32,000 nt of DNA, from positions 60,001 to 92,000 of the forward strand of contig NZ_BCZP01000009.1 of the NCBI RefSeq assembly GCF_001598795.1, in the 5' to 3' direction. The translations under genes were made by a program, and so were the position numbers. The notes below the pieces were generated by a model, which had not been told where the DNA came from, did no database searches, and saw only the letters and a program-made list of their open reading frames with translations. Origin of the DNA: Delftia acidovorans NBRC 14950 (lineage in GTDB: Bacteria; Pseudomonadota; Gammaproteobacteria; Burkholderiales; Burkholderiaceae_C). This document shows, one piece after another, positions 5,513 through 23,568 of the stretch; the first letter of the stretch is position 1; each line of letters begins with the position of its first letter.

Positions 5513-5702
5513 GGTTGGGGAGGGGCATGCAGAGGTTGTAGATGGCCAGCCAGTGCATTGCGCGGTGGCTGTGGAACGGGTAGCGGCAGCCTTCATTCGG
5601 CGTCTGGCCAGCGGCATGGGCTTCCCGTGCCTCGCGTTCAATGACCGCCTTGGGGACACTGGTTGTCCAGGTGCCGCATTGGTCAACGATGGGGTCAGCC
5701 AT
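5484..5702 (-). CDS. hypothetical small protein (72 aa)
   Basis: ATG at 5702 is preceded by AAGGAGGA and overlaps the stop of the upstream gene (5695-5702). Confidence 0.65.
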   Translation of the reverse strand: MADPIVDQCGTWTTSVPKAVIEREAREAHAAGQTPNEGCRYPFHSHRAMHWLAIYNLCMPLPNHGKPKNTIS

Positions 5703-6027
5703 GGGTATCCTCCTTCGAGCGTGGCGGCACCAATGCAGCGCAGACCATATGGGCGTGCACCTCACTCCTGGGCGGCCTGCAATGCAGGGTGTGCACCTGG
5801 GCGCGCTCCAGTTCCACAACGAGTGCGGCACCTGGAACCAGGTGCACCCGGTTCTCATGCCAAAAGCGCTGGGCGGCGTTGCCCGTCCAGGTGACGCGCC
5901 AGGGCTCAACGCGATGGGGGCCGAGGCGGTCATACAGCAGTAGCTGTAGCTGGAAGGCCCCGCACGCCGCGTGGGTCGCCTGGGGCGGTGTGCGGCTCAA
6001 AAAGACGGTGCCGGTGTGGTTCATCAT
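5695..6027 (-). CDS. hypothetical protein (110 aa)
   Basis: ATGATG at 6027-6022 is preceded by GGAGG. ATGA overlap with the upstream Zn-ribbon gene. Confidence 0.65.
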   Translation of the reverse strand: MMNHTGTVFLSRTPPQATHAACGAFQLQLLLYDRLGPHRVEPWRVTWTGNAAQRFWHENRVHLVPGAALVVELERAQVHTLHCRPPRSEVHAHMVCAALVPPRSKEDTHG

Positions 6028-6236
6028 TGCCTCCGTTCGGCTGGTTGCCCTGTGCTCGGTGCGGCTGCAGGGGGTGGTAGACGATCCAGGCGGACGGAAC
6101 AATCAGCGCAGACATGGCAGGCGCGGAAACGGCGCGAGCCAGCGGCGGGCTTTTCTTGTTCGCACTGGATGCAGAAGATGGCTTCGGCCAGGTCATGGAG
6201 CCGCATGGGCTCTCGGCCTTTCTTTGGACTGCGCAT
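6024..6236 (-). CDS. small CxxC...CxxC zinc-ribbon-like protein (70 aa)
   Basis: ATG at 6236 is preceded by GGAAAGGAG. Two Cys pairs are present (CIQC and CHVCADC). Confidence 0.6.
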   Translation of the reverse strand: MRSPKKGREPMRLHDLAEAIFCIQCEQEKPAAGSRRFRACHVCADCSVRLDRLPPPAAAPSTGQPAERRQ

Positions 6237-6323
6237 GGCGCTCCTTTCCGGTGGTGCATCAGGCCAGCGCCCTGGCTGCAAGGCGCTGGGCTGATGGCCC
6301 TCGCATGGGGCGAGGGCGCGAGG

Positions 6324-7163
6324 TCAGGCCTTGGTGTAGGTGCCGATGAGGACCGGCGAAGTGTTTTCAACTGCCGTGCGGATGAGCGTGGCGAACTCGT
6401 TGGCCATCTGCTCCACCTGCTCCTCAAAAGCGGCCGGGCGCAGGATCAGCCGTGGCTTGTCATCCAGCAGCACGCTCAGCCGCAGCGAGAACGTGCGCGT
6501 CTGCAGGTCCGGGTAGGGCGTGCAGGTGAAGAGCAGGTGTGTGGGCAGCGTGTGGCTGCTGCTGGCCCGCGCCCTCTCCAGCACGGATTGCTCGGTGCTC
6601 AGGGCCTGCACATTGCTCTGAGCCTTCTTCATTGCCTCGACGGAAATGTCGCGGACTGCCGAGACCGCCTTGCGTACTTCCAGGGGCACACCATCGCTTT
6701 GCGCCTGCAGGAAAAGGGACCAGTCTTCGAGCCATTCGGCCATGTCCTTCTGGCTCTGTTGGCGGTTGATGATGGCGAGCAGCGCGGCGTAGGCTGCCGT
6801 GGCTCCTGGCTTGAGGATGGCTGTGTGCGCGCAGTGGCCGGGCTCGGTGGGCGTGCCCAGGTCCAGCACTGCCGTGGCGGTCATGGCCTCCGCATTCACG
6901 AAGACTGTGCAGCCCTCATCGCGGTGGCTGGCCATGTATGTCACGAAGTCGTTGATGTACGGCGAGACCATCTTGCCGGCGGCGCGGCGCCGGGCTGGCA
7001 GGTAGGCCTCCAGGTCGTGGACCTTGAACTGCTCAGGCAGGGCCAGGGCGCCGCTGTGCGTGCTCAGCGCGGCGGAGAGGGCGGCCTCGGCTTGGTCGAT
7101 GTCCTTCTCAGGCGCGCCCAGGGCGTGAGCGTTGGCGTGCAGGGCGGTGGAAGTGCTGTTCAT
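6324..7163 (-). CDS. DUF2303 / YfdQ-like phage protein (279 aa)
   Basis: Complete ORF with good codon bias. Size and the segment HDLEAYLPARRRAAGKM recall the Rac-prophage YfdQ family (from memory, not searched). Confidence 0.55.
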   Translation of the reverse strand: MNSTSTALHANAHALGAPEKDIDQAEAALSAALSTHSGALALPEQFKVHDLEAYLPARRRAAGKMVSPYINDFVTYMASHRDEGCTVFVNAEAMTATAVLDLGTPTEPGHCAHTAILKPGATAAYAALLAIINRQQSQKDMAEWLEDWSLFLQAQSDGVPLEVRKAVSAVRDISVEAMKKAQSNVQALSTEQSVLERARASSSHTLPTHLLFTCTPYPDLQTRTFSLRLSVLLDDKPRLILRPAAFEEQVEQMANEFATLIRTAVENTSPVLIGTYTKA

Positions 7164-7184
7164 TGATATCTTTCAGGTACGGTT

Positions 7185-7214
7185 GAAAAGAAGCGGCCCG
7201 CAAGTGGCGGGCCG
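7185..7214 (-). terminator. intrinsic terminator / inter-cistronic hairpin
   Basis: CGGCCCGC / GCGGGCCG 8-bp GC stem (7194-7201 / 7207-7214), followed on the minus strand by CTTCTTTT. It lies just downstream of gene 7239-7607. Confidence 0.6.
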
Positions 7215-7238
7215 TTCAGTAGGGATGGGTGGTGCGGG

Positions 7239-7607
7239 TCAGGACAGCTGCTTGGCGCCGTCCTTTGCGTCGGCAAACATCTGTGTCTGGTTCTGGGGCA
7301 TGAGCGTCATCACGCCGAACTTGCCCACGTGCATCACCGTCTTGCGCGTGGCTTCCTCGGCGGCCTTGCCATCGGCCGTGGGCCGTGTGTACTTCAGGGT
7401 GTGCGACACGGTCACCTGGCTGGTGCCGGGGATGCGAGTGATCTTGAATTTCACGTCGACATCGCCCTGGCGGTCGTTGTCAACCACGCCGGCCGCCACC
7501 TTGCCCAGTGCGGCGGACAGCATGCGGTCGAACTGGCCGCCGTCGAGGTCGGTAATGAACTCGCTGACGTCTATTTGCGAGGCCGAAGTTTGGGGAACTT
7601 GATGCAT
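7239..7607 (-). CDS. hypothetical phage protein (122 aa)
   Basis: ATG at 7607 is preceded by AAAGGAG. Good codon bias. Confidence 0.7.
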   Translation of the reverse strand: MHQVPQTSASQIDVSEFITDLDGGQFDRMLSAALGKVAAGVVDNDRQGDVDVKFKITRIPGTSQVTVSHTLKYTRPTADGKAAEEATRKTVMHVGKFGVMTLMPQNQTQMFADAKDGAKQLS

Positions 7608-7633
7608 GGAAATGCTCCTTTCGAGCGGTTGGG

Positions 7634-7750
7634 TTAGAGAACAGGGCCAGGGGGAAAGAGAACGAGGGCGGCAAGGCCGGTGCCGTTGATCAGGAACAGC
7701 AGCCAGAAGGCCACCGCCAGGGCTCGTGCGTGCAGCAGGGGGCGCCTCAT
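7634..7750 (-). CDS. tiny hydrophobic peptide (38 aa, one predicted TM helix)
   Basis: MRRPLLHARALAVAFWLLFLINGTGLAALVLFPPGPVL. The start forms an ATGA overlap with the stop of the preceding 46-codon ORF. Confidence 0.45.
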   Translation of the reverse strand: MRRPLLHARALAVAFWLLFLINGTGLAALVLFPPGPVL

Positions 7751-7887
7751 GCGATGCGCTGGAGGGCTCGGGCGCTTATGGAACGCGCGCCTGGGTGGCG
7801 CTCCATGGCATCGCACACTGCCGCGCAGCTGCTGCGTGCGAGAGCGATGTGCGTGAGGGCGCCGATGGTGATCAGAAATGGGCGCAT
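7747..7887 (-). CDS. small protein (46 aa) with hydrophobic N-terminus
   Basis: ATG at 7887 is preceded by AGGAG. MRPFLITIGALTHIALARSSCAAVCDAMERHPGARSISARALQRIA. Below the ORF-track size cut-off; translated by hand. Confidence 0.45.
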   Translation of the reverse strand: MRPFLITIGALTHIALARSSCAAVCDAMERHPGARSISARALQRIA

Positions 7888-8117
7888 GGAAGAACTCCTG
7901 TGGGGTACTGAGGCATGGCCGGCGCGCCAGCGCGCACGCGGCGGCGGGGCAGGTTCACCAGCATCTGGTCAGGGTCAACTTCAACTGTGGGCACCATGCA
8001 CCGCTGCTGTTGCGCTCGGGCGATCGTTGCGGCGATGTCGGTGCAGCGGCTGTCGCGGTATGCGAATGCGCTGCTTGTGAGCGGGATGCTGGGCATGGTG
8101 ATGCGGGCGGCTGTCAT
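7872..8117 (-). CDS. hypothetical protein (81 aa)
   Basis: Internal ATG at 8117 is preceded by AGGAGA. Confidence 0.55.
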   Translation of the reverse strand: MTAARITMPSIPLTSSAFAYRDSRCTDIAATIARAQQQRCMVPTVEVDPDQMLVNLPRRRVRAGAPAMPQYPTGVLPCAHF

Positions 8118-10149: not shown

Positions 10150-10217
10150 TAGCGAAACGCTAGAAAATACTCCAGCTATTCGCTAGATAAGTTGACTAGC
10201 GAATGTGGTTATCGCTA
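10150..10217. promoter_or_regulatory. operator cluster at the 3' end of the repressor gene (OL-like)
   Basis: TAGCG-AAA-CGCTA palindrome (10150-10162). ATTCGCTAG-N9-CTAGCGAAT perfect 9-bp inverted repeat (10178-10204). An extra TCGCTA half-site (10212-10217) overlaps the repressor stop codon. Confidence 0.7.
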
Positions 10218-10973
10218 TATACCCCCTTGCCGATAGACAAATTCTCCTTTGATCGCTAGAAGGTCGGAGCTCTCAGGGGGGATGCGCTCGTCAGGGAATC
10301 GACTTTTGTTGGTGTTCCTGCTTTCAAGCACCCAGGAACCATCTATTCCTCTGCGTAACTGCTTGATTTTCAAGCCATCTGGGTGCTGGATGAGAAAGAT
10401 GGCCCCGCTGCGTGGTGATGTCTTTGTGCGGTCGAAAATGACTATGTCTCCGTCCACGATGAAGTCAGCCATGCTGTCTCCGTCGGCCATGATCGCCATT
10501 GCATCTTTTGGTCTAACTCCATAGCGCTCGAACCATGTTCGCTCCTTCGCAAGGCGGCCCTTCAATCTGCTCTCCCAGTTGTTGCTGCCCCCTCCGCAGG
10601 AGCCACGCACATCCCAATATTCGATTGACAGGGTCTCCACCCCGTCCTCCCCTTCTTCGTGGAGGGTAAGTTCGGTCTCGATCGCGTTGGTAGCTTGGTC
10701 AGGCCCGCCCAGATGCTGAGGTAAGGGGGCGTCATTGTCGAACCACCCTCGACGCAGGCGCCACTCATCCTCGATGCGCTCTGCAGCCTTGTCGCCCAGC
10801 GAGCGGGGGCTCTGAGAGCCGTCCTTTTTAGGGGGCAGCAGTGTGCCTGCGAGGACTTGTGTCAGGGTTTGATAGTTCATGCCCGCCCGATCGGCAACGG
10901 ACTTGATCCCCCCTGGCACGGCATCCGCCAGCATCTTCAGTTTGCGTTTTCTGCGCTCAGATCCTGTTTCCAT
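10215..10973 (-). CDS. CI-like repressor, N-terminal HTH plus C-terminal S24 (LexA-like) autopeptidase (252 aa)
   Basis: HTH region IKSVADRAGMNYQTLTQVLAG. Catalytic GDSM ... KIKQL Ser/Lys dyad. Divergent from a Cro-like gene. No SD before the ATG. Confidence 0.9.
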   Translation of the reverse strand: METGSERRKRKLKMLADAVPGGIKSVADRAGMNYQTLTQVLAGTLLPPKKDGSQSPRSLGDKAAERIEDEWRLRRGWFDNDAPLPQHLGGPDQATNAIETELTLHEEGEDGVETLSIEYWDVRGSCGGGSNNWESRLKGRLAKERTWFERYGVRPKDAMAIMADGDSMADFIVDGDIVIFDRTKTSPRSGAIFLIQHPDGLKIKQLRRGIDGSWVLESRNTNKSRFPDERIPPESSDLLAIKGEFVYRQGGI

Positions 10974-11052: not shown

Positions 11053-11295
11053 ATGACCATTCCGCAGTACTCACCTGAGAGGCGTCGATCCCTGGCCAAG
11101 GAGTTGGGGATCGAAGAGCAGTACCTGTACCAAATCTCGAAGGGTCTGCGGGTGGCCAGTCCAGCACTGGCCCGCAGCCTCAACAGGGTTGATCCTCAGG
11201 CGCAGTTGCAAGACTTGCGTCCTGACGACTGGCATCTGATCTGGCCAGAGTTGGCCTTGCAGCCCATCAGGGCAGAGGGTGCCTGCCGTGTCTGA
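11053..11295 (+). CDS. Cro / YdaS-like HTH regulator (80 aa)
   Basis: LAKELGIEEQYLYQISKGLRVASPALARSL fits the Cro/YdaS-type HTH. Divergent from the repressor. No SD, and the ATG lies 7 nt after the candidate -10. Confidence 0.75.
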   Translation: MTIPQYSPERRRSLAKELGIEEQYLYQISKGLRVASPALARSLNRVDPQAQLQDLRPDDWHLIWPELALQPIRAEGACRV

Positions 11296-11711: not shown

Positions 11712-11741
11712 CGCTTCTTGTCCTTTCGAGGGTGAGTGCTG

Positions 11742-12263
11742 ATGTCCACGACTTTCTCAATTTCTCTGCCTGGCGGATATGGCGGCGTGGGCCCAGCGGC
11801 CGACACTCAGCTGGGGATGGACGAGATCCTGGCTGCGCAGCAGGCAGCCCAGGCGTTCAAGGGCGGGGTGCCTGCGCTGGCCCAGGCCATGGGCATATCG
11901 CCCAACACGCTGCAGCACAAGCTCAACCCGGGCAGCACGCGCCATCACCTGACCCTGCGTGAGTCCATTGCTCTGCAACGCATCACGCGCGACGTGGGCG
12001 TGATGCGCGCCATGGCCAAGGCCCTGGGCTATGTCTGTGTGCTGGCCACGCCAGACCAGGGAGAGGGCGACCCTGTGCAGGCATTCGCCAATTTCCAGGG
12101 CGAGGTGGCCGACTTCTCCCGCGCCATCGCCGACGCCATGGTCCACCAGCCTCCCAGCCCCAACGCCCAGCGCCGCATCGACTACCGCGCACAGGAAGTG
12201 ATTGCGGCCACGTGCCACATGGTGAGCACCACGGCGGCCATGGTTCCAAAGCGGGCGACCTGA
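11742..12263 (+). CDS. phage regulatory protein CII (CP76 family)-like (173 aa)
   Basis: LAQAMGISPNTLQHKLNPGSTRHHLTLRESIALQRITRDVGVMRAMAKALGYV matches the CP76/CII pattern. GAGGGTGAG SD before ATG 11742 (the GTG at 11736 is also possible). Confidence 0.7.
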   Translation: MSTTFSISLPGGYGGVGPAADTQLGMDEILAAQQAAQAFKGGVPALAQAMGISPNTLQHKLNPGSTRHHLTLRESIALQRITRDVGVMRAMAKALGYVCVLATPDQGEGDPVQAFANFQGEVADFSRAIADAMVHQPPSPNAQRRIDYRAQEVIAATCHMVSTTAAMVPKRAT

Positions 12264-12273
12264 CATGTTTCCA

Positions 12274-12372
12274 GCGACCACCCTAAGCCACAACCACCAC
12301 GGCCTGGCCTTGTCCGCCATTCGGGCCTGCACCTCTATCTCCCTGCTGATTCGTGGTGGTCAGGGTGGTCGC
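12274..12372 (+). other. long interrupted inverted repeat in the primase leader
   Basis: GCGACCACCCT (12274-12284) pairs with AGGGTGGTCGC (12362-12372). ACCACCACG (12293-12301) pairs with CGTGGTGGT (12352-12360). That gives 20 bp in total, with a 50-nt apical region. Confidence 0.6.
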
Positions 12373-12690
12373 TCCTTTCTTGCCGCACTCGCGGCCCAAC
12401 GCACGCGTGGGGGTGACAGCCCATGCGCACGCACAACAGCAGGCACCAGCATGCACACATCTCCCTCGCGCCCCGCCCCGGCCGCGCGCACCCTGTTCCC
12501 CGCCCCCCTTTGCTTTCAGGAAGGCGCGCACACGCGCCTGTCAGTTGGGGGGTGGATGGCTTTGTCGCTTTTTTGCAACGGCTGCTTAAAAATTAAGCAA
12601 ACCGATCACGGGTCCTTCCTGGCGAGCTTCAAAGCGGGTAATTCGAACCTTTTCCGCCGGGTAGTCAGTGGCGCTGGGAGTTACTGACTG

Positions 12691-15159
12691 ATGTCCTCGA
12701 ACTATGACGACGTCCTGGGCCAGCTCGTCCAGGCCGGCCTGGAGGTGGATCGGCTCGAAGTGGGGCGCCTGCGCCGCTGCCGGGTCGAGGGCCGGGGCAA
12801 GGAAAAGCCCGGCTGGTATCTGCTGCATGAGATGCGGCTGGACAACGGCAATGATCTGATCGTCGGCAGCTTCGGCGTCTGGAGCGGCGCCGAGAACAAT
12901 GCCCGCAAGGTCGAGATCCGCAAGTCGGAGCTCAGCCGCGAGCAGTCCGAGGCGCTGCGCAAGCGCCTGGCCGAAGACAAGCGCCGCGCCGAGGCGGAGC
13001 GCAAGGCCGAGGCCGAGCGCGCAGCGGCCAGGGCCACGGCCGCATGGAAGAAATGCCAGCCGACGGGCGACAGCGACTACCTGGCCCGCAAGGGCGTGGG
13101 CGGCTACGGTGTGCGCCACTCGCCCAGCGGCGCCATGGTCATCCCGCTGCTGGACGCCATGGGCCACATCCACGGCCTGCAGATCATCCGCGGCAAGGAT
13201 CGCAAGCCCGGCACGCGCGAGAAGGAATACTGGCCGCTGGGCCTGGTCAAGAAGGGGCGCTTCCACCTGATCGGCATGCCGGTGCCTGGCGGGGTGGTGC
13301 TGGTCGCCGAGGGCTATGCGACGGCGGCCAGCCTGCACATGGCCACCAACGTGCCGGTGGCCGTGGCCTTCGACGCCAACAACGTGCCGCTGGTGGCCGA
13401 GGCGCTGCGCGCCCGCTACAAGGGCGTGCGCCTGCTGATGTGCGCCGACGACGACAACACGCAGCGCTGCCATGCCAAGGACGAGGCCGAGAGCCAGCGC
13501 CTGGGCAAGCATGTGGAGTGCCGGGCCCGGGTGTGGCTGCCCGACGGCCGGACCTGCCCGAAGTGCGGCCAGGACCACAACGCGGGCAATGCCGGCATGA
13601 CCATGGCCAGCACGGCCGCCATGCAGGTGGACGGCCAGTGGTTGGCGCCAGCCTTTGCCGATCCGGTGGCGTTGCGCGCCGGCTGGCTTGACGATGGCGC
13701 CAAGCTCAACGACTTCAACGACCTGCATCTGGCCGAAGGGCTGCATGTGGTGCGCGCCCAGGTGGAGGCCCGCCTGCTGGAATTGGGGTGGCGCACGCGC
13801 AGCGGGGCACAGCGCCTGCAGCCCAGCCGGGGGGAGGGGGGTGGCACGGTGCTGGAGCAGCTGCGGCCCATCGACAGCCTGGACGAGCTGCTGGAACGTT
13901 TTGCCCTGGTGTACGGCCAGGGCGGCGCAGTGTTCGACCACGACGAGCACCGGCTGGTGACCCTCACCGACATGGGCCACATCTGCCTGAGCCGCGACCT
14001 GTATCGGACCTGGAGCGAGCACCCCGACCGGCAGATCGTGCGGCCCGAGCAGGTGGGATTCGACCCGGCGTGCACGGATGAGTCCATCACCTGCAATCTG
14101 TGGGACGGCTGGCCCACCCGGCCCAAGCCTGGCAGCTGCGAGAAGCTGCTGGAGCTGCTGTGGCACATGTGCAGCGGCGACGGCAACGCGGATGTGCTCT
14201 ACAACTGGGTGATCAGCTGGCTGGCCTACCCGCTGCAGCACCCAGGCGCGAAGATGAAATCCGCAATCGTCGTGCACGGGCCGCAGGGCACGGGCAAGAA
14301 CATGTTCTTCGAGGCCTACATGGCCATCTTCGGCAAGTACGGCTGGACCATCGACCAGTCCGCCATCGAGGACAAGTTCAACGACTGGGCCAGTCGCAAG
14401 CTGTTCCTGATCGCCGACGAGGTGGTGGCCCGCTCTGATCTGTACCACGTCAAGAACAAGCTCAAGGCCTTCATCACCGGGGACCAGATCCGCATCAATC
14501 CCAAGAACATGGCGGCCTACTACGAGGCCAACCACGTCAACATGGTGTTCCTGTCCAACGAGGCCATGCCCGTGGTGCTCGAAGAGGACGACCGGCGCCA
14601 CGCCATCATCTGGACGCCAGCCAAGCTGGATGCCGAGTTCTACCGGGCCGTAAAGGCGGAGATCGATGCTGGCGGCGCCGCTGCGCTGTACGACTTCCTG
14701 TTGGGCTGGGATGTGGGCGATTTCGACAACGCCACGCAGCCCCCCATGACCGAGGCCAAGCAGGAGCTGATCGCACTGAGTCTGGACAGCCCGAGCAAGT
14801 TCGTGCGGGCCTTCGAGGCAGGGGACGTGCCAGGCTTCCCTGGCAAGGGCGCGCCGGGCCTGCTGACGCCGTGCCTGACCACGGACATCTACGAGCTCTA
14901 CAAGTGGTGGTGCGGCAACACCAATGAGAAGGCGTTGACCCTACCCAGGTTCGCCAACGCTCTCAAGCGCAAGCACCAGGCCGGCATCGAGCGCAAACGC
15001 TACGTGCTGGATTTCAACCGGACGGTAGGCCCTGCCAGCGTCTGCTATCTGCCCGGTGGCCAGGAGCTGCCCCCCGGCCGCCCCGAGACGGAGTGGCTGG
15101 GCGAGCGCATCGACGTCTTCAAGCGGTCGATGAAAGACGCCAAGGGAGGTGCCCTGTGA
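12691..15159 (+). CDS. replicative primase-helicase fusion: Toprim primase plus SF3 (P4-alpha / D5-like) helicase (822 aa)
   Basis: Toprim motifs VLVAEGYATAASL and LLMCADDD. A Cys4-type insertion (C..C...CPKC) lies in the primase part. Walker A VVHGPQGTGKN (about 14270-14300) and Walker B LFLIADEV (about 14400-14424). GGGAG SD. Confidence 0.9.
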   Translation: MSSNYDDVLGQLVQAGLEVDRLEVGRLRRCRVEGRGKEKPGWYLLHEMRLDNGNDLIVGSFGVWSGAENNARKVEIRKSELSREQSEALRKRLAEDKRRAEAERKAEAERAAARATAAWKKCQPTGDSDYLARKGVGGYGVRHSPSGAMVIPLLDAMGHIHGLQIIRGKDRKPGTREKEYWPLGLVKKGRFHLIGMPVPGGVVLVAEGYATAASLHMATNVPVAVAFDANNVPLVAEALRARYKGVRLLMCADDDNTQRCHAKDEAESQRLGKHVECRARVWLPDGRTCPKCGQDHNAGNAGMTMASTAAMQVDGQWLAPAFADPVALRAGWLDDGAKLNDFNDLHLAEGLHVVRAQVEARLLELGWRTRSGAQRLQPSRGEGGGTVLEQLRPIDSLDELLERFALVYGQGGAVFDHDEHRLVTLTDMGHICLSRDLYRTWSEHPDRQIVRPEQVGFDPACTDESITCNLWDGWPTRPKPGSCEKLLELLWHMCSGDGNADVLYNWVISWLAYPLQHPGAKMKSAIVVHGPQGTGKNMFFEAYMAIFGKYGWTIDQSAIEDKFNDWASRKLFLIADEVVARSDLYHVKNKLKAFITGDQIRINPKNMAAYYEANHVNMVFLSNEAMPVVLEEDDRRHAIIWTPAKLDAEFYRAVKAEIDAGGAAALYDFLLGWDVGDFDNATQPPMTEAKQELIALSLDSPSKFVRAFEAGDVPGFPGKGAPGLLTPCLTTDIYELYKWWCGNTNEKALTLPRFANALKRKHQAGIERKRYVLDFNRTVGPASVCYLPGGQELPPGRPETEWLGERIDVFKRSMKDAKGGAL

Positions 15160-15185
15160 AGCACTGCACCCTCGCTCGCCCTGAT

Positions 15186-15437
15186 CTGTGCGGCATGTGC
15201 GGCATGCCGTGCGGCTTCGCGTGCGTCATTAAGTCATTGATTTCAAAGGCATGTGCGGCATGTGCGCCATCCCTCCTTATGTGTGTGGGCGCAGGCGTGT
15301 GCGCACACCTGCGCAGGTGCGCGCATGTGCCTATGCGTGAGCATGGCGCACATACCGCACATAGCGCACACATCAAGCGCGACAAGCACTTACGTCATTT
15401 TCACGACGCACATCTAGCCGCACTACATACCGCACAA
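15186..15437. repeat. dyad-symmetric iteron array (candidate origin of replication)
   Basis: Forward ATGTGCG(G/C) copies at 15187, 15195, 15209 (partial), 15251, 15260 and 15325 (partial). Reverse (C/G)CGCACAT copies at 15346, 15355, 15364 and 15407, with degenerate copies at 15419 and 15430. Adjacent copies are 9 bp apart. Central palindrome GTGTGCGCACAC (15297-15308). AT-rich patch GTCATTAAGTCATTGATTTCAAAGG (15225-15249). Confidence 0.8.
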
Positions 15438-15458
15438 CCCTTTTTGAAAGGAAAAGAG

Positions 15459-15698
15459 ATGGAGAGAGAAGAAAAGAGGGTGATTGGCTGCACGGCCGAG
15501 AACGCTGCTCTGGTGCGCGACGTGGTCAAGACCTGGCCGCAGCTGCACGGGCTGGTCCACCAGCTGCAGGCCGCCGGCATCTTCCCTGGCTTGCGTTCCC
15601 TGGAGTTCACACTGCGCGGCGGCCCACAGTTCCGGGCCCAGGGCCTGGAGGCGCTTGTGGCGAGCCGCGCGGCAGTGGAAGAGGGGGGCGCGGCATGA
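15459..15698 (+). CDS. hypothetical protein (79 aa)
   Basis: ATG at 15459 is preceded by GAAAGGAAAAGAG. The upstream part of track ORF 15093-15698 is merely translated iterons. Confidence 0.6.
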   Translation: MEREEKRVIGCTAENAALVRDVVKTWPQLHGLVHQLQAAGIFPGLRSLEFTLRGGPQFRAQGLEALVASRAAVEEGGAA

Positions 15699-16540
15699 GC
15701 AGCTTCTCCGTCGAAATGTCGGCCCGGGTGCTGGGCCAGGCCGAATTGCTGGCCCAGCTGCACGGCATGACCGGAGCACAGGCGGCAGGCGCCTACGCCA
15801 AGGCCATCAACGACACGGCATTCGAGGTGCGGCGCGCCATGCAGGCCGAGATGCGTGCCCGGTTCGACCGGCCCACGGACTACATCCTGCGCTCGCCGCG
15901 CGTGAAGATGGCTACGGCGGCGCGCCTGTCGGCCTCGATCGCGCCGGACTACATGGGCGGCAAGGGGATTGATCCGCAGAAGATCCTGCGTGCCCAGGGC
16001 GAGGGCGGCACCCGCCGCGACAAGCGAAGTGAGGTGGCTCTGCGGCGCGCCGGGATTCTTCCTAACGGATATCAGACTGCAATTCCAGCCGATAGGTATG
16101 GCGGGCCGTATCCGGGTAGCGACGATGGGCGCGGCAACCTCAAGGGCAGCTTTCTGGTGCAGCTGCTGGCGTACTTCCAGGCCTTTGCAGATGAGGGGCG
16201 TGGCTTCAAGGCCAACATGACCGAGAAGGGCTACAAGCGCGTGCACAAGGGCACGAAGAAGGCTGTGGGCCGGCGCTACTTCGTGGCCTACGGCAAGGCA
16301 CGCGGCGGCGCGCGCACCACGGCCCTGGGCGAAGCCGACGCCCGCACGTCCCACCTTGCCCCGGGTATCTGGGCTGCGAGCGGCACGGGCGGCGCGGATG
16401 TGCGCGCCGTGCTGTTGTTCGTGAAGCGGGCCCACTACAGCGTGCGCCTGGAGAGCGAAGCAATCGCCAAGCGCGCCGACGCACAGAACTACCTGGAAAA
16501 GCGCCTGCGCTATCGCGTAAGGGAGGCGGCCGGAGTATGA
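15695..16540 (+). CDS. hypothetical basic phage protein (281 aa)
   Basis: ATGA coupling on both sides. Good codon bias. No family recognised. Confidence 0.7.
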   Translation: MSSFSVEMSARVLGQAELLAQLHGMTGAQAAGAYAKAINDTAFEVRRAMQAEMRARFDRPTDYILRSPRVKMATAARLSASIAPDYMGGKGIDPQKILRAQGEGGTRRDKRSEVALRRAGILPNGYQTAIPADRYGGPYPGSDDGRGNLKGSFLVQLLAYFQAFADEGRGFKANMTEKGYKRVHKGTKKAVGRRYFVAYGKARGGARTTALGEADARTSHLAPGIWAASGTGGADVRAVLLFVKRAHYSVRLESEAIAKRADAQNYLEKRLRYRVREAAGV

Positions 16541-17154
16541 GCGAGCACCGCATGCATCCTGAAGAAATGAGCCTGGGCGAGTTCAACCGCCACATGGGCT
16601 ACAAGGGCCGCTTCGCCTGGCAGCTCAAGAATGAGCAGCGCCTGGTAATGAGCGATGACGGCAAGCGTGTGCGCGTGGCCGATTCCATCCGCTTGATCAA
16701 CGAAACCAAGGACCCCAGCCGGGCCGCTGTGGCCGCCCGCCATGCCGCTGGCAGACAGGGCGCGCTGGCCTCCGCGCCAGAAGAACCGGAGGACGACAGC
16801 GAGAGCGCTGTCTCTGAGCCGGGTGCGACGGGCAGCGGTTTCAAGTTTCACGACGGCAAGGCCAAGCGTGAGCACTATTCGGCGCTGCGCGAGGAGATTG
16901 CCTACTTCAAGGAAGTGGGCCAGCTCATGGATGCCGACGAAGCCCTTGGTGCCTTCGCGGACGCGGGGGCGCGCGTGGGCGCGGTGCTGGACACCGTGCC
17001 CGCCAGCGTCGGCCCCATGCTGGTGGGGCAGCCTGCCGAGGAGATTGTGAGGATCCTGGAAGACCAGATGGATGTGGCCCGGGCCGAGCTGGCCGTGGCC
17101 GTCGAAAAGCTGGCCGCCGAGATCAGCAAGCGCAGGAAAGAGGGGACCGCTTGA
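16537..17154 (+). CDS. putative terminase small subunit (205 aa)
   Basis: Lies immediately upstream of, and coupled to, the gpA-type TerL. Acidic middle and coiled-coil C-terminus. Assignment rests mainly on position. Confidence 0.6.
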   Translation: MSEHRMHPEEMSLGEFNRHMGYKGRFAWQLKNEQRLVMSDDGKRVRVADSIRLINETKDPSRAAVAARHAAGRQGALASAPEEPEDDSESAVSEPGATGSGFKFHDGKAKREHYSALREEIAYFKEVGQLMDADEALGAFADAGARVGAVLDTVPASVGPMLVGQPAEEIVRILEDQMDVARAELAVAVEKLAAEISKRRKEGTA

Positions 17155-19130
17155 ACAGCGCCGCACAACGAAACATCGGCTGCCCCAGCGTCGCGCTGCG
17201 CGCCATGGCCAAGACCATAGGGCCACGCAAGCGCCGGTCCGTCAGCCAGTGGGCGGATGCAGAGCGCAAGCTCTCGGGCAAGGGCAGCGCGATTACCGGG
17301 CAATGGCGCACCAGCCGCAACCCGCCGCTGCGCGAGCCCATGGACTGCGCATCGCCCAAGTCCGGGGTGCATGAAATCGTCTTGATGTTCCCCATCCAGT
17401 TCGGCAAGACCGAGGTGGAGGTCAACATCCTGGGCCACACCATGACCGACGACCCGTGCCCGGTGATGGTCGTGCTGCCCGGCGAAGTCTCGATGAACAA
17501 ATGGGTCAACCAGAAGTTGAACCCCATGATCGAGGAATGCGACGCGGTGCGCGGGGCGCTGCGCAGCGTGGCCAGCCGGGATGCCAGCAACACGCGCGAG
17601 TTCAAGGACTTCGTGGGCGGCCAGCTGTACATGGAGCATGCCGGCTCGCCCTCGCGCGCCAAGTCCTCCTCGATCCGCAAGCTGTTGGTCGACGAGCTCG
17701 ATGAGATCGCGGCCAACTGGAAGGGCGGCGACGACCCTGTCGAGATGTTCGACGGCCGCACCAGCGCCTTCCCGGCCACCGGCCTGCGCGTGTACATCAG
17801 CAGCCCCCAGGTACGGGGCCTGAGCCGCATCGAGGCCAAGTACCTCAAGTCCGACCAGCGCCGCTACCACGTCCCGTGCCCGCACTGCAGCCACATGCAG
17901 CCCCTGAAATGGTCGGGCCTGCACTGGAGCCCTGATCGGTCCAAGGTCTGGTATGTCTGCGAGGAAAACGGCTGCTGCATCGATGAGCACCACAAGACGG
18001 CCATGATCGCCGCCGGCCGCTGGGTCGCCGAGAACCCCGACAGCAAGATCCGCGGCTACCACATCAACTGCCTGTACTACCAGTTTGGCCTGGGCCCGAC
18101 CTGGGCCACCCTGGTGGAGATGTGGCTCGACGTGCAGGGCGACCCGGCCCGGCTCAAGACGTTTGTGAATGACCGCCTGGCCGAGCCCTGGGAGGACAAG
18201 TCCATGCGTCTGGTGCGCCACAACGTCATCCAGGAGCGGGCCGAGCCCTACGTGCTGCGCGTTGCGCCCCGTGGTGTGCTCTACGTCACGGCGGGCGTGG
18301 ACACGCAGGACGACCGGCTGGCTGTGCACCTGACCGGCTGGGGCCGCGGCATGGCCTTCTGGACGCTGGACTACTTCGAGCTGCCAGGCGACCCCGCCGA
18401 GGGCGCCGTGTGGGCGGCCTTGACCGAGGCACTCAACAAGGCCATTCAGCGCGTGGACGGCGTGCTGCTGCGCGTGGAGGCCATGGCCCAGGACCAGGGC
18501 GGCCACCGCACCGACGAGGTCAAGAACTACATCCGCCAGGCCCTGGTGCGCCGGCCCATGTCCATCCATGGAGCCATCGCCAACAACGCGCCCGTGCTCA
18601 GCAAGCCCAAGCTGATGGACGTCACCCACAAGGGCAGGACGGACAAGAAGGGCGTGCGGGTCTACACGGTGGGTACGGTGTCTTGCAAGGACTGGCTGTT
18701 CGGCCGGCTCAGCGTGGATGCGGAGCGCAAGCCCGAGGAGCGCGTCACGCACTTCAGCGACCAGCTGGATGCCTTCTATTTCGCAGGCTTGGTGTCGGAG
18801 ACCTACGACCCCTCGAAAAACCGCTATGTGGTGAAGAAGGGCGCGCGCAACGAGCCGCTGGACACCTGGTGCTACAGCTATGCCGCAGCCCATCACCCTG
18901 AGCTGCGCCTGCACCGGCACCGGGAGGTTGATTGGGACGCGCGTGAGAAGTACCTGTTGCAACAGCTTGCGCGGCAGCCGGATGGATCCTTTGTGCCCGC
19001 CGCTCCGCTCCCACGGAACGGCACTTCGCCCGAACCCGCCAGCCCGCCAGCGCCCACCAAGCCGAGGCCTGCACCACGCCGGCCACAGAAATCCCACTTT
19101 GCCTCTGATGATTGGAGTAGCCGACTATGA
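17151..19130 (+). CDS. terminase large subunit, lambda gpA family (659 aa, TTG start)
   Basis: VSQWADAERKLSGKGSAITGQWRTSRNPPLREPMD... and overall length fit Terminase_GpA. TTG at 17151 is preceded by GGAAAGAGGGG and overlaps the TerS stop. An alternative ATG lies at 17205. Confidence 0.9.
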   Translation: MNSAAQRNIGCPSVALRAMAKTIGPRKRRSVSQWADAERKLSGKGSAITGQWRTSRNPPLREPMDCASPKSGVHEIVLMFPIQFGKTEVEVNILGHTMTDDPCPVMVVLPGEVSMNKWVNQKLNPMIEECDAVRGALRSVASRDASNTREFKDFVGGQLYMEHAGSPSRAKSSSIRKLLVDELDEIAANWKGGDDPVEMFDGRTSAFPATGLRVYISSPQVRGLSRIEAKYLKSDQRRYHVPCPHCSHMQPLKWSGLHWSPDRSKVWYVCEENGCCIDEHHKTAMIAAGRWVAENPDSKIRGYHINCLYYQFGLGPTWATLVEMWLDVQGDPARLKTFVNDRLAEPWEDKSMRLVRHNVIQERAEPYVLRVAPRGVLYVTAGVDTQDDRLAVHLTGWGRGMAFWTLDYFELPGDPAEGAVWAALTEALNKAIQRVDGVLLRVEAMAQDQGGHRTDEVKNYIRQALVRRPMSIHGAIANNAPVLSKPKLMDVTHKGRTDKKGVRVYTVGTVSCKDWLFGRLSVDAERKPEERVTHFSDQLDAFYFAGLVSETYDPSKNRYVVKKGARNEPLDTWCYSYAAAHHPELRLHRHREVDWDAREKYLLQQLARQPDGSFVPAAPLPRNGTSPEPASPPAPTKPRPAPRRPQKSHFASDDWSSRL

Positions 19131-19513
19131 ACACACAACCCCAATGCCTTGATGCACAGGCGGCAGATGCTGTCTTGCAACTGGAATACGACCTGGTCGA
19201 GATGGTGAGGGAGGAAATGGGTTGGCCCGAAGCCCAGGCCTATCCCTTGGCCAAGGCTTTGGTGCGAGGGATGCGCAAGCGGTATGGGGGCATGCGCATC
19301 GGTGGTCGCGGCGCGGCCATCTACATCCCAGCGCCAAGCAAGGAGGAGCGGAACGAGGCAATCAGGCGGGAGTTCGATGGAACGAACCGGGCGGCCGTCA
19401 TGGCCAAGTACGGCATCAAGCGCACGCAGCTGTATCGCATCATCAGCCGGCGACCCGGGGCTGCGCGGATTGGCGTGTCCAGCGCGAAAGTCCCATTTTT
19501 CGACAAGAAATGA
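19127..19513 (+). CDS. Mor-family transcriptional activator-like protein (128 aa)
   Basis: C-terminal IYIPAPSKEERNEAIRREFDGTNRAAVMAKYGIKRTQLYRIISRR matches the Mu Mor/C-type HTH pattern. ATGA overlap with the TerL stop. Confidence 0.75.
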   Translation: MNTQPQCLDAQAADAVLQLEYDLVEMVREEMGWPEAQAYPLAKALVRGMRKRYGGMRIGGRGAAIYIPAPSKEERNEAIRREFDGTNRAAVMAKYGIKRTQLYRIISRRPGAARIGVSSAKVPFFDKK

Positions 19514-19789: not shown

Positions 19790-21349
19790 ATGACCCTGAA
19801 CCTGATTGATCGACTCGTTGGCTGGTGGTCTCCCGTGGATGGCGTGCGCCGTGCTCAGGCACGCAATGTGCTCGCCCACTATGAGGCCGCTCAACCCACC
19901 CGGCTGCGCAAGCACCGCAACATCAACCCATCGCCCAATAGCCTGGTGGAGCGCAGCGCTGGTGCCCTGCGCAACCATGCCCGCTACCTGGAGCGGAATC
20001 ACGACCTGACCCGGGGTGCGCTGCGGACCCTCGTCAACAATGTGGTCGGTCCCAATGGCATCGGTATCGAACCGCAGCCGCGGCGACGCGATGGCTCGAT
20101 ACACACGGAATATGCCGAACAGCTGCGGCGGTTGCGGCGACAGTGGTGTCGGCGGCCAGAAGTCACGGGCCGCATGCATTGGGCCCAGGCCGAGCGCATG
20201 TCGGCCTACAGCTGGATACGCGATGGCGAGATGTTCTCCCAACTGGTTATAGGGGAAGTCGCCGGGCTCAGGCATGCCGGATCGGTGCCGTTCAGCATTG
20301 AATTGCTGGAGGCGGATTTCGTGCCGCTGGAGTACAGCGACCTGAACCGCAAGATCCGCCAAGGCATACAGGTCAATGACTGGGGCCGGCCTGTGAATTA
20401 CCACGTCTTCCGACGAGACCCCCGTGAGGCTGGGGCGTGGATCTCCCCGACAGATCTCAAAAGCATCCCGGCGGCAAATATGCTGCATGTTTCGACCATG
20501 GATCGTCTCCACCAATGGCGCGGGATAAGTGAATTCGCCAGTGTCCTTAATCGTGTCGAAGATCTCAAGGACTACGAGGAAAGTGAGCGAATTGCCGCCA
20601 AAATCGCCGCGTCCATGGCGGCATACGTGAAGCGCAATGCGGGTACGGACGGCTTTGATACCGAACAAGATAAGCGCGAGAAAGACGAAGATGGCAGGCC
20701 GATCCCGCGTGAAATGCGCATGCAACCGGGAATGATCTTTGACGACCTGATGGTGGGCGAAGAGATCGGGCTCATCGACACCAATCGGCCCAACCCCAAC
20801 CTGGTAGCCTGGCGCAGCGGCCAGTTGCGGGCCTATGCGGCGGGGATCGGTGCCAGCTACAGCAGCATCAGTCGTGACTACAGCGGAACATACAGCGCGT
20901 TGCGCCAAGAGCTGGTGGAGCAATGGGTGCACTATGCGGTGCTGGCCGACGACTTTGCGGGCCAGTTCAGCCTGCCGGTTTGGGAAACCCTGGTACGTGT
21001 TGCGCACTTGAGCAACGTCTTGCCAATCCCCAAGGATGTCGAACCGGGGACAGAGGCAGAGTGCTTGCTGATCGGCCAGGCCATGCCCTGGATCGATCCA
21101 CTCAAGGAGGCAAACGCCTGGGAGAAGCTGGTGCGCGGAGGGTTTGCCAGCGAGGTTGAGGTCATCCGGCGCCGGGGCGGCAATCCTCGGGAGACGTTGG
21201 ACCAGATCCAACAGTTCCGGCGTGATGCCGCAGAGAGGGGACTCCGCATGGCTTCGAATCCTGCGGATGACCGGGCAGCACCGTTGACTCCCGATGGCAG
21301 CGAGGATCCCGACCAGGAGGAGGGGGTCAAGGTCACGCCAGACACCTGA
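19790..21349 (+). CDS. portal protein, lambda gpB family (519 aa)
   Basis: The N-terminus LIDRLVGWWSPVDGVRRAQARNVL...YEAAQPTRLRK...LERNHDLTRGAL.. is typical of Phage_portal_2. Gene order agrees. Confidence 0.9.
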   Translation: MTLNLIDRLVGWWSPVDGVRRAQARNVLAHYEAAQPTRLRKHRNINPSPNSLVERSAGALRNHARYLERNHDLTRGALRTLVNNVVGPNGIGIEPQPRRRDGSIHTEYAEQLRRLRRQWCRRPEVTGRMHWAQAERMSAYSWIRDGEMFSQLVIGEVAGLRHAGSVPFSIELLEADFVPLEYSDLNRKIRQGIQVNDWGRPVNYHVFRRDPREAGAWISPTDLKSIPAANMLHVSTMDRLHQWRGISEFASVLNRVEDLKDYEESERIAAKIAASMAAYVKRNAGTDGFDTEQDKREKDEDGRPIPREMRMQPGMIFDDLMVGEEIGLIDTNRPNPNLVAWRSGQLRAYAAGIGASYSSISRDYSGTYSALRQELVEQWVHYAVLADDFAGQFSLPVWETLVRVAHLSNVLPIPKDVEPGTEAECLLIGQAMPWIDPLKEANAWEKLVRGGFASEVEVIRRRGGNPRETLDQIQQFRRDAAERGLRMASNPADDRAAPLTPDGSEDPDQEEGVKVTPDT

Positions 21350-21459: not shown

Positions 21460-23568
21460 ATGAGCACAACCCAGAAGTGGTACGCGATCCGGCGCAAGAG
21501 CGCAATGGCCGCTGCTGCAGCCGGCACGCTGGCTGCCGCTGAAATCTTCATCTATGGCGACATCGGTGAGAGCTGGTGGGATGAAACCGTCAGCGCCCGG
21601 GATTTCGTGGCCGAACTGCAGGCGCTGGACGTTGAAGCGATCACCGTGCGCATCAACAGCGTGGGCGGCAGCGTGCCGGATGGCTTGGCCATCTACAACG
21701 CCATGCGGCGTCACAAGGCCACCGTCACTGTCGAAGTGGATGGCATGGCCTTCTCCATCGCCAGCTTGATTGCCATGGGCGGCGACAAGGTCCATATGGC
21801 CGACAACGCCATGCTCATGATCCATGCGCCCTGGACCTATGCCGCTGGCAACGCGGCCGAGCTGCGCGATCTTGCAGACCAGCTGGATACCTGGGCTGCA
21901 GCAATGGCGACCAGCTATGCAGCCCGTACCAACGACCACGACGGCGCCCTGGCGCTGCTCACCGATGGCAAGGACCACTACTACACGGCGGCCGAGGCCA
22001 AGGCCGCTGGCTTTGTCGACGAGGTCACCGAAGCCCACCCCATTGCGGCCAGCGCATCCCGCGACCTGCCGATTTCTCGCTATCGCTCCCTGCCGTCCGC
22101 CTTGGCGCAGACGGTGGGCTCTCCTGCGGCAACAGCCGCGCCATCCGCTCCTCAAGAGGAACCCATGAACAAGAACCGCAAGCACTCGCCACAGAACGCC
22201 ATTGGCGCTTCCGGCGCCGCTGCTGCAGGTGGCGGAAGCGCCGCACCCGCAGTAGCCACCGCGCCTGAAGCAGCCTCTGTGCTGGCCGCCGACCAGACGC
22301 GGCGCCAGTCCATTCGCACAGCATTCGCCGCTTTCTCCGACCGCCCAGGGGTGGTTGCGCTGCAGCAGACCTGCGAGGATGACTATGGCATCACCGCCGA
22401 GGCAGCCGGCGCACGCCTTCTGGCGCACCTCGGCTCCCAGGCTACCCCCGTGGCAGGCCTTGCCACGGTGGAAGACGAAACCGACAAGCGTCGTGGTGCG
22501 GCTGTCGCTGCGCTGTTGGTGCGTGCAGGCTATGCCACCAAGGATCAGGTGGCTGCGCAGGCGAGCAATCCCTACCGGGGCATGAGCCTTGTGGAGATGG
22601 CACGGGCATCACTGGAGCGCATCGGCGTGTCGGCCCGTGGCATGGACAAGCGCGACCTCGTCGCCGCAGCTTTCACCCAGTCGACCAGCGATTTCCCCAT
22701 CCTGCTCACGGATGCGATCCATCGCACGCTGCTGTCGGCCTACTCGGTGCAGGCCCTGACCTGGCAGCGCTTTTGCAAGCGCGGCTCTGTGTCCGACTTC
22801 CGCGCGCATCACCGGCTGCGCGCTGGCTCCCTGGGCAACCTGCAGCCCAAAAATGAACTGGGCGAGTACAAATCCATCGCCATCCCCGATGGTGAAAAGT
22901 CCAGCATTGCGGCGGCAACCAAGGGCTACATCATCAATCTCAGCCGCGAGATGGTGATCAACGATGACCTGGGTGCTCTCACTGATCAAGCCGCAGCCAT
23001 GGGCCGCAGTGCCGCCCGTACCGTTGAAACGGATGTCTACAAGCTGCTGGCCGAAAACGACGGCATGGGCCCCACGATGGACGACGGCAAAACCCTGCTG
23101 CACTCTGACCACGGCAACGTGGTGACTGCACCGGCCGGGCCGACTACCCAGTCGTTCCAAGACTTCCGCGTGCTCATGGCCAAGCACAAGGACATCAGCA
23201 AGAACGATTTTCTCAACCTCCTGCCCGCAGTGTGGCTGGGCCCGCTCGGCCTGGAGGCGCTTGCAAAGCTGGTGAACCAGGCCCAGTACGAGCCGAGCAC
23301 CTCCAAAAACGCCATGACGCCAAACATCAGCCTGGGCCTCTTCCGGGACATCGTGGGTTCTCCTCGTCTGGAAGGCACACGCCACTACGCGCTCACCGAT
23401 CCGAACGAGGCAGCAGCCATCGAAGTGGCTTTCCTCGACGGCGTGGATACGCCTTTTCTTGAGCAGGAATCCGCCTTCACCACCGACGGCACTCGCTTCA
23501 AGGTGCGCCTTGACTACGGCGTCGGTGCCCATGACTGGCGCGGTATCGCCACCAACGCAGGCGCCTGA
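21460..23568 (+). CDS. prohead protease (ClpP/S14-like) - scaffold linker - major capsid protein fusion (702 aa)
   Basis: The N-terminal 195 aa show a ClpP-like fold pattern (INSVGGSVPDGLAIYNAM...GMAFSIASLIAMGGDKVHMADNAMLMIH...AAEAKAAGFVDEV). A low-complexity Ala-rich linker follows. The C-terminal 330 aa or so are capsid-like. It is a single uninterrupted frame. Confidence 0.8.
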   Translation: MSTTQKWYAIRRKSAMAAAAAGTLAAAEIFIYGDIGESWWDETVSARDFVAELQALDVEAITVRINSVGGSVPDGLAIYNAMRRHKATVTVEVDGMAFSIASLIAMGGDKVHMADNAMLMIHAPWTYAAGNAAELRDLADQLDTWAAAMATSYAARTNDHDGALALLTDGKDHYYTAAEAKAAGFVDEVTEAHPIAASASRDLPISRYRSLPSALAQTVGSPAATAAPSAPQEEPMNKNRKHSPQNAIGASGAAAAGGGSAAPAVATAPEAASVLAADQTRRQSIRTAFAAFSDRPGVVALQQTCEDDYGITAEAAGARLLAHLGSQATPVAGLATVEDETDKRRGAAVAALLVRAGYATKDQVAAQASNPYRGMSLVEMARASLERIGVSARGMDKRDLVAAAFTQSTSDFPILLTDAIHRTLLSAYSVQALTWQRFCKRGSVSDFRAHHRLRAGSLGNLQPKNELGEYKSIAIPDGEKSSIAAATKGYIINLSREMVINDDLGALTDQAAAMGRSAARTVETDVYKLLAENDGMGPTMDDGKTLLHSDHGNVVTAPAGPTTQSFQDFRVLMAKHKDISKNDFLNLLPAVWLGPLGLEALAKLVNQAQYEPSTSKNAMTPNISLGLFRDIVGSPRLEGTRHYALTDPNEAAAIEVAFLDGVDTPFLEQESAFTTDGTRFKVRLDYGVGAHDWRGIATNAGA

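Follow-up and report, generated by a model that had tools for sequence, protein, structure and literature searches.

The stretch analysed here, referred to throughout as the window, comprises 32,000 nucleotides of Delftia acidovorans NBRC 14950 (contig NZ_BCZP01000009.1, positions 60,001 to 92,000; 64% GC) and is a temperate phage or prophage. It encodes the terminase subunits TerS and TerL, a portal protein, a ClpP-capsid fusion and further large open reading frames (ORFs), and is thus a complete phage and not a satellite. Satellites such as phage-inducible chromosomal islands (PICIs) and Staphylococcus aureus pathogenicity islands (SaPIs) lack a full set of structural and packaging genes of their own and depend on a helper, a description that does not apply to the window phage. 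CI-like and CII-like regulators are also encoded. Between the gene for a primase-helicase, here termed PRI, and a small gene, ORF79, lies an intergenic region that carries an array of short repeats (iterons) in opposed orientations. This array, a candidate origin of replication, is the subject of the present report; its parts and the surrounding genes are listed in Table 1.

Structure of the repeat array

The array consists of twelve 9-mers with the consensus TGTGCGSYA, six in forward orientation on the left and six in reverse orientation on the right, which are grouped 4+2 in the left arm and 3+3 in the right, with a spacing of 9-13 bp between neighbours. The first iteron lies 27 nt downstream of the PRI stop codon. 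The core TGTGCGS occurs 25 times in the whole window, which is the number expected by chance (25.7), and 10 of these 25 matches fall inside 15187-15436, where about 0.2 would be expected (Poisson P ~1e-14). Their strand polarity is strict, the five matches at 15187-15298 all being on the forward strand and the five at 15301-15430 all on the reverse strand. No other cluster of the 9-mer is present in the window.

A second element is built into the arms. The consensus for integration host factor (IHF), WATCAANNNNTTR, has only two matches in the window against 0.15 expected. A perfect site separates the outer and inner iteron groups of the left arm, and an IHF-like site is found at the mirror position on the right. 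The left-arm position has a perfect match in 30 of 78 relatives, and the right-arm position has the perfect consensus in many of them (for example L002, L007, L008, L011, L066, L074 and L087).

An earlier note on this DNA, made from the letters alone, had placed the repeats correctly to within 1 nt and had recognised both their dyad arrangement and a 12-bp palindrome, GTGTGCGCACAC, which is indeed present at 15297-15308, inside the dyad centre. Its count of about ten iterons was too low. It had also described the iterons as flanking an AT-rich patch of GTCATT repeats at 15225-15249; GTCATT does occur twice there, but the patch is the IHF consensus within the left arm and not the dyad centre, and the true centre is GC-rich.

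Across relatives the sequence of the centre varies while its type of composition is conserved, and it is A-rich only in relatives of lower GC content such as L074, L064 and L080. Its length is 74-86 bp in those iteron classes whose core does not recur within it; automatic measurement was unusable for the CGG and CGC classes, in which the centre itself contains GTGCGC/GCGCAC. Scans for Rfam families, tRNAs, promoters and terminators found nothing within or near the array. Two further candidates were set aside, namely a partition site, as no ParA or ParB was seen in the window, and a CRISPR-like array, as the copies abut one another with no unique spacers between them.

Table 1. Positions of the array elements and of the genes around them in the window.
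Feature	Position	Strand	Description
CI-like S24 repressor	10215-10973	-	
Small ORF	11053-11295	+	In cro position
CII/CP76-like protein	11736-12263	+	
'ORF140' stretch	12264-12690		Apparently non-coding
PRI	12691-15159	+	Primase-helicase, 822 aa; Toprim, DUF5906/VapE-like superfamily 3 (SF3) helicase and putative C-terminal DNA-binding domain; proposed initiator
PRI residues 724-822	14860-15156	+	Winged-helix-like domain, proposed iteron reader; AlphaFold2 model; best predictor of iteron class
Intergenic region	15160-15458		Region under study
Forward iterons F1-F4	15187-15228	+	TGTGCGGCA (15187), TGTGCGGCA (15196), CGTGCGGCT (15208), CGTGCGTCA (15220); same position and number in relatives
IHF consensus, perfect	15230-15242	-	Between F4 and F5; AATCAATGACTTA matches WATCAANNNNTTR
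Forward iterons F5-F6	15252-15269	+	TGTGCGGCA (15252), TGTGCGCCA (15261)
Dyad centre	15270-15343	.	Length 74 bp, GC content 65%; purines and pyrimidines alternate; candidate site of melting and helicase loading
Reverse iterons R1-R3	15344-15370	-	TGTGCGCCA (15344), TGTGCGGTA (15353), TGTGCGCTA (15362); 9-bp spacing
Mirror IHF-like site, degenerate	15380-15392	+	Between R3 and R4; CGACAAGCACTTA; 6 of 9 specified positions match
Reverse iterons R4-R6	15404-15436	-	TGTGCGTCG (15404-15412), AGTGCGGCT (15416-15424), TGTGCGGTA (15428-15436)
ORF79	15459-15698	+	
ORF281	15695-16540	+	
TerS	16537-17154	+	
TerL	17151-19130	+	Lambda gpA family
Mor-like ORF	19127-19513	+	
Portal	19790-21349	+	Lambda-type
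ClpP-capsid fusion	21460-23568	+	

Conservation of the array beside the primase-helicase gene

A search with full-length PRI gave 2716 homologues at E<=1e-10 among 8000 candidates scored, and 119 loci were retrieved from genomes and viral contigs with PRI as the probe; a search with the C-terminal 136 residues of PRI alone returned only four matches. The closest named phage is Stenotrophomonas phage S1 (NC_011589), an autonomous phage whose PRI is 54% identical to that of the window. Nearer relatives, with PRI identities of 72-99%, are prophages of Comamonas and other Comamonadaceae and contigs from IMG/VR. At the DNA level, a similarity search of phage records with 14600-17200 gave no match.

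With a simple detector based on exact 7-mers, the array was found at 93 of 113 PRI-bearing loci. These share one layout after the PRI stop codon, namely four forward copies, an IHF-like site, two forward copies, the centre, three reverse copies, a second IHF-like site and three reverse copies, with the IHF-like sites on the reverse strand in the left arm and on the forward strand in the right. The distance from the PRI stop codon to the first copy is short and almost constant (median 26 nt, interquartile range 16-28), and 92 of the 93 loci have it within 89 nt. From the last copy to TerS, the distance ranges from 32 to 3081 nt. The gene order PRI, non-coding stretch of about 300 nt, ORF79, ORF281, TerS and TerL is kept down to about 60% PRI identity. 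In S1-like phages PRI is followed by about 350 nt and then directly by TerS, the array lying 32-75 nt upstream of the latter, and in locus L138, where the homologue of ORF281 is found ahead of PRI, the array again directly adjoins the PRI stop codon.

The sequence of the iteron itself differs between relatives, which fall into at least ten iteron classes, and within each locus all copies carry the same version. Classes found among the relatives include TGTGCGGYA, TGTGCGCYA, TGTGGGGYA, TGTGAGGCA, TGTGCAGGG, TGTGCCGGG, TGTGAAGGG, TGTGCGGGG and TGAGACGGG, and more distant PRI lineages have GCACGGG, GGTTACG, TTATTACG and others. Such concerted change of all copies implies a sequence-specific binding protein that co-evolves with them.

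We give hardly any credence to the idea that the stretch is coding sequence or functionless repeats. An open frame at 15093-15698 does span the region, and in the S1 record a hypothetical protein, gp2, is annotated over the homologous stretch (2454-2804) and covers the iteron array. However, the spanning frame falls below the filter of 0.72 for GC content at third codon positions (GC3) that every confident gene of the window passes, and a layout that is retained through simultaneous change of every 9-mer copy does not follow codons. A single iteron cluster is present in the complete genome of S1 (40 kb), where 11 of the 20 TGTGCGG matches lie at 2471-2733, inside gp2, and this annotation is probably an origin mistaken for a gene.

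The C-terminal domain of PRI and the iteron classes

PRI matches the Pfam families Toprim_3, DUF5906 and VapE-like and PHROG 2249 (DNA primase), and it matches the primase helicase domain of PDB entry 6k9c with E=1e-16. BLASTP aligns it with the alpha protein of phage P4 at 30% identity over 142 residues of the Toprim primase domain (E=1e-10), and a match to the P4-family model TIGR01613 (primase_Cterm) is weak and sub-threshold. The AlphaFold2 model of residues 724-822 has a pLDDT (predicted local distance difference test score) of 91 and comprises two helices, a long beta-hairpin and a third helix. Foldseek match lists for this domain consist almost wholly of winged-helix DNA binders, among them MarR, ArsR, the RFX DNA-binding domain (probability 0.89; root-mean-square deviation 3.4 over 62 columns) and Orc1/Cdc6 on origin DNA. 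We call the domain winged-helix-like because of its topology and the nature of these matches, and not on account of any significant match.

To relate iteron class to protein sequence, sliding windows were run over 77 PRI sequences, pairs of the same class being compared with pairs of different classes relative to their overall identity. The association with class peaks at residues 730-805, with an area under the curve (AUC) of 0.76-0.83, and the rest of PRI, with the exception of one second peak, gives about 0.33-0.62. With the same normalisation, the AUC is at most 0.62 for TerS, ORF79, ORF281 and TerL. The second peak, at PRI residues 408-468, was considered as a specificity determinant and rejected; it looks like a clade marker common to the window, CGC and GGG classes.

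A nearest-neighbour test, in which pairs of more than 85% overall identity were excluded, gave the same picture. The nearest neighbour had the same iteron class for 64 of 74 sequences (86%) when residues 720-760 of PRI were compared, for 65 of 74 (88%) with residues 755-800 and for 64 of 74 (86%) with residues 760-822, against 29 to 50 of 74 (39-68%) for other segments of PRI. Full-length TerS scored 42 of 66 (64%; overall range for TerS 59-64%), ORF79 28 of 49 (57%), ORF281 13 of 46 (28%) and TerL 9 of 55 (16%). By these comparisons, iteron class follows PRI residues 720-822 and does not follow TerS, TerL, ORF79 or ORF281.

A near-isogenic pair of loci, L071 and L085, narrows this further. 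Their PRI proteins are 95% identical overall and 95-99% identical within residues 1-750, and only 72% identical in residues 750-800. The intergenic DNA of the two is nearly identical except in 11 of the 12 iterons, where one locus has TGTGCAGGG and its partner TGTGCCGGG, a difference of one base (A versus C). The protein differences, which in the beta-hairpin amount to a handful of residues, lie in the segment ...RKH(x6)RKR... and the strand that follows it (ITDRKRIGQGSNPKTVLYL versus KVERKRLGGSSNPVRVLHL), and CAGGG iterons are accompanied by the 'NPxT' version on another PRI backbone as well. On the structural model, the class-specific residues occupy the last part of the second helix and the hairpin.

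These results bear on whether the array could instead serve as operator or promoter region for the late genes downstream (ORF79-ORF281-TerS-TerL), with a phage regulator such as CII, ORF79 or the Mor-like protein bound to it. Its place directly upstream of ORF79 and the packaging genes, with a Mor-like activator and a CII-like protein encoded nearby, would suit such a role. Yet ORF79, the one of these three regulators checked for co-variation, predicts iteron class in only 57% of cases, no sigma-70-like promoter was found in 12200-15800, twelve sites in a dyad over 250 bp would make an atypical operator, and the array stays with PRI where the downstream genes differ. We therefore regard an operator as highly unlikely.

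The probable cohesive end of the phage family

All relatives have a conserved element ahead of PRI, consisting of CCGRTCNNGGGTCCTYCC, about 15 nt, GCG/GGTAATTCGaaCC (the slash marks the cos point), GTAGTCAGTG, GAGTTACTGA and the ATG start codon. The window version (12600-12690) reads GGGTCCTTCC, about 17 nt, GCG/GGTAATTCGAAC and then the inverted pair GTAGTCAGT / GTTACTGAC. Eleven independent contigs (L009, L010, L021, L023, L060, L072, L076, L080, L090, L097 and L103) start exactly at the G after the slash, about 51 nt before the PRI start codon, and L074 starts one base later. In L091 an Illumina adapter (GTGACTGGAGTTCAGACGTGTGCTCTTCCGATCT, contig positions 1-37) is joined 2 nt inside the cos point, and L066 has, fused exactly at that point, a cloning linker (contig positions 1-53) that contains NotI, SalI and XbaI sites; both are contaminating sequence in public IMG/VR contigs, yet they mark true molecule ends. 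Scanning viral contigs for the pattern added L126, which stops at ...GGGTAATGCGAAC, 12 nt beyond the cos point, while the sequences of L102 and of the S1 record open about 10-12 nt downstream of that point, with S1 at 12 nt. The contig starts, the adapter and linker joints, the end of L126 and the start of S1 together indicate a 12-nt cohesive end, equivalent to 12637-12648 in the window (GGTAATTCGAAC). This evidence consists of the physical ends of related contigs and is carried over to the window by homology; the cos of the window phage thus probably lies just upstream of PRI, 2.5 kb upstream of the array and on the other side of the PRI gene.

The cos element falls within 'ORF140' (12265-12687), an open frame between CII and PRI. 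This frame, probably no gene, lies below the 0.72 GC3 filter passed by every confident gene of the window and is 84-86% conserved compared with 96-99% for its neighbours; searches of Pfam, PHROGs and NCBIfam gave no match to it.

The same cos element occurs in phages that have no PRI, where TerL follows some 600-900 nt later and short direct repeats come after cos (for example GGTTGAC three times). No array of forward and reverse copies was found within 6 kb in these phages. PRI-less viral contigs with CCGRTCNNGGGTCCTYCC among L121-L199 have three to four direct repeats (GGTTGAC, GGTTGTC, GGTAGTCA, GGTGCAAC, TTGAAC and others) followed by the terminase genes; these repeats look like lineage-specific TerS sites of the cosB type. 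Conversely, in two loci a unit of a distant PRI homologue and a dyad array that goes with it lies upstream of cos (L169, ~4690-7413; L161, ~5753-8078), the array being made of GGTTACG/CGTAACC in L169 and of the GTTACG/CGTAAC type in L161. Cos thus stands between the array and the terminase genes in both. The array is thus on the early-gene side of cos in these loci and on the terminase side in the window family, from which it follows that cos and the replication module have changed in relative position during evolution. As far as this comparison of loci goes, the array belongs to PRI and not to the terminase.

The main competing account of the array, which the earlier note had kept open beside an origin, is a terminase recognition site of the cosB or pac kind, at which TerS would bind the repeats, IHF would bend the DNA and packaging would start. 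The lambda cos site (cosQ-cosN-cosB), and cosB in particular, likewise combines repeated protein-binding elements with an IHF site; the TerL of the window is of the lambda gpA family and its portal lambda-type; and in S1-like relatives the array comes within 32-75 nt of TerS. Unlike lambda cos, however, the array is symmetric, and a symmetric dyad is ill-suited to directional packaging. It tracks PRI rather than TerS, both in distance, which is fixed from PRI and varies by some 3 kb to TerS, and in iteron class, which TerS predicts at 59-64% against 86-88% for the C-terminus of PRI. The DNA ends of relatives are placed some 50 nt ahead of the PRI start codon, at a distance of 2.5 kb from the array; phages with the cos element and a gpA-type TerL and no PRI have no such array; and TerL is separated by cos from the PRI-array unit in L169 and L161. 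A packaging role for the array is accordingly very improbable.

A candidate replication origin

We consider it most probable that the array at 15187-15436 is the replication origin of the phage, of the SaPI, PICI or P4 alpha type, and that it is read by the last domain of PRI, a conclusion drawn from sequence comparison, the structural model and analogy. The earlier note had proposed an origin of this kind with the C-terminal domain as its reader. This proposal gains support here from the adjacency of the array to the PRI stop codon in some 93 relatives, from the co-variation of the iterons with PRI residues 720-822 and not with TerS, and from the predicted winged-helix-like fold of that region.

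P4 alpha resembles PRI in architecture, as in both a single polypeptide combines a primase of the Toprim type with an SF3 helicase and, at the C-terminus, an origin-binding domain (in PRI, a predicted one). Its homology to PRI is weak and detectable. P4 also has short iterons in both orientations, and its crr cluster lies directly 3' of the alpha gene. The two systems differ in that P4 has both ori and crr, with the same iterons, where the window and the S1 genome each have one cluster; the type I iteron of P4 is the octamer TGTTCACC, not TGTGCGSYA; and the C-terminal domains have no detectable sequence similarity. A more distant parallel is found in SV40 large T antigen and papillomavirus E1, SF3 initiators with an origin-binding domain of their own, in which inverted short elements direct head-to-head double hexamers around a melting region. 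Those proteins belong to eukaryotic viruses, their origin-binding fold is different, and neither a fused primase nor IHF sites occur in these systems; the likeness is a mechanistic analogy only.

P4 also provides a case for a different role, in which the array would bind PRI but serve as an auxiliary cis element, crr-like, autoregulatory or for handcuffing, with initiation elsewhere, for instance inside the PRI gene. The cluster that immediately follows the alpha gene in P4 is crr, with ori itself 4.5 kb distant and the two needed together in cis. In N15, initiation takes place inside repA. The centre of the window array, not being AT-rich, would also fit an auxiliary element. On the other hand, neither the 32-kb window nor the complete 40-kb S1 genome has a second iteron cluster, and inverted arms around a spacer match the SaPI and PICI origins for which initiation and melting have been shown (PMC9371898, PMC6092414). 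We hold an auxiliary role to be quite unlikely and prefer the array as the origin itself.

The SaPI and PICI systems are also among the closest known to such an origin. SaPI Rep, an SF3 helicase with a C-terminal winged-helix domain, binds 6-12 iterons that lie directly 3' of rep in opposite orientations around a melting region (PMC9371898), and the pri-rep-ori units of Escherichia coli PICIs support plasmid replication (PMC6092414). The array under study shares with them its position directly 3' of the initiator gene, its two opposed iteron sets (here 6+6) around a central region, and an initiator with an SF3 helicase (in Rep sometimes with a fused primase as well). The C-terminal winged-helix domain of Rep would have its counterpart in the winged-helix-like domain predicted for PRI, and in both groups the specificity of iteron and winged helix (in PRI, putative) differs between elements (PMC9371898, PMC6092414). 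It is set apart from them by belonging to a complete temperate phage, by its 9-mers at 9-13 bp spacing in groups of 4+2 and 3+3, by the IHF consensus inside each arm (perfect on the left and degenerate on the right in the window), by its GC-rich centre and by the Toprim-type primase of PRI; the likeness is one of architecture.

With SaPI Rep, the E. coli PICI pri-rep-ori units, P4 alpha and the SF3 initiators of eukaryotic viruses as analogues, initiation may be pictured as follows. PRI would supply a Toprim primase, an SF3 helicase and a winged-helix-like domain in one polypeptide, the last of which would bind the 9-bp iterons. The opposed arms of six copies each would orient two PRI assemblies head-to-head around the 74-bp centre, and host IHF would make the complex more compact by bending each arm at the site that divides its outer iterons from its inner ones. 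Melting of the centre would follow, the SF3 rings would load themselves onto the single strands with no separate loader, and the fused Toprim primase would lay the first primers, so that DNA synthesis would start at the array.

Several observations weigh against this account. The window centre, at 65% GC, equals the window mean and is not AT-rich, unlike the melting region of SaPIs and PICIs, and its potential to form a hairpin or cruciform is not significant (z=-1.3). The right-arm IHF-like site of the window is degenerate. About 20 of the 113 loci lack an array by the exact-7-mer detector, though they may hold degenerate or different repeats. Foldseek matches to the C-terminal domain are all weak, none reaching 0.001 (best E=0.02 with a 156-residue model that has a disordered N-terminus, and 0.19 with the model trimmed to 99 residues), and the P4 origin-binding domain is absent from the top 50 structural matches. 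Finally, the co-variation statistics ignore shared ancestry, although several classes recur on different backbones. It is chiefly in its GC-rich centre that the array departs from the SaPI/PICI picture, and melting there is the least understood step.

A bolder reading, which we put forward only as a rather doubtful possibility, takes two ideas jointly: that the origin has no AT-rich unwinding element, and that PRI and its origin form a portable phage cassette whose place relative to cos has moved. Under the first, two iteron arms bent by IHF would clamp a GC-rich tract of alternating purines and pyrimidines prone to form Z-DNA or a cruciform, and opening might depend on a structural transition driven by supercoiling or on direct melting by the SF3 ring, unlike the AT-rich melting of SaPIs and PICIs. 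The second, if true, would make the PICI-type origin a widespread module of temperate phages from which satellites borrowed.

The organisation of the PICI origin has been described as common to no other known replicon (PMC6092414). The phage family examined here, judged by its sequence layout, shows otherwise: iterons directly 3' of pri-rep, described as a hallmark of PICI satellites, are now also found in complete phages. The class of mechanism is already known, and what is usefully added is a natural series in which iterons are matched with putative winged-helix specificities, together with the mapping of cos by comparison. With at least ten classes and a near-isogenic pair, the former amounts to a natural dataset on how a winged helix may read a 9-mer, and could be of use in designing orthogonal pairs of origin and initiator for high-GC hosts. 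More broadly, for the temperate phages of this kind in Comamonadaceae, Xanthomonadales and other Proteobacteria, a large family most of which is unannotated, the analysis offers a candidate replication origin and, as a by-product, a probable cos site.

Other features of the window

The leftward early region encodes a 704-residue protein with an N-terminal C5 cytosine methylase domain (2236-4350, reverse strand) and a DUF2303 protein (6324-7163, reverse strand). Between about 8450 and 10200 there is no ORF with GC3 >=0.72, and this segment may be a recent acquisition. The ORF resembling Mor-family transcription activators occupies an unusual place, between TerL and the portal gene.

A small ORF in the position of ORF79, 3' of the array, is present in relatives down to about 59% PRI identity. 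It has no family match in Pfam, PHROGs or NCBIfam; its conserved parts are the start region (...R-x-I-x-C-T-x-E-N...) and the TTTTTGAAAGGA ribosome-binding region. ORF281 matches PHROG 1924 ('minor tail protein') and, weakly, PHROG 27 (neck/tail completion). Its position varies, lying between the candidate origin and TerS in the window, before PRI in L138 and before cos in L169, and from this distribution it appears to behave as a mobile module.

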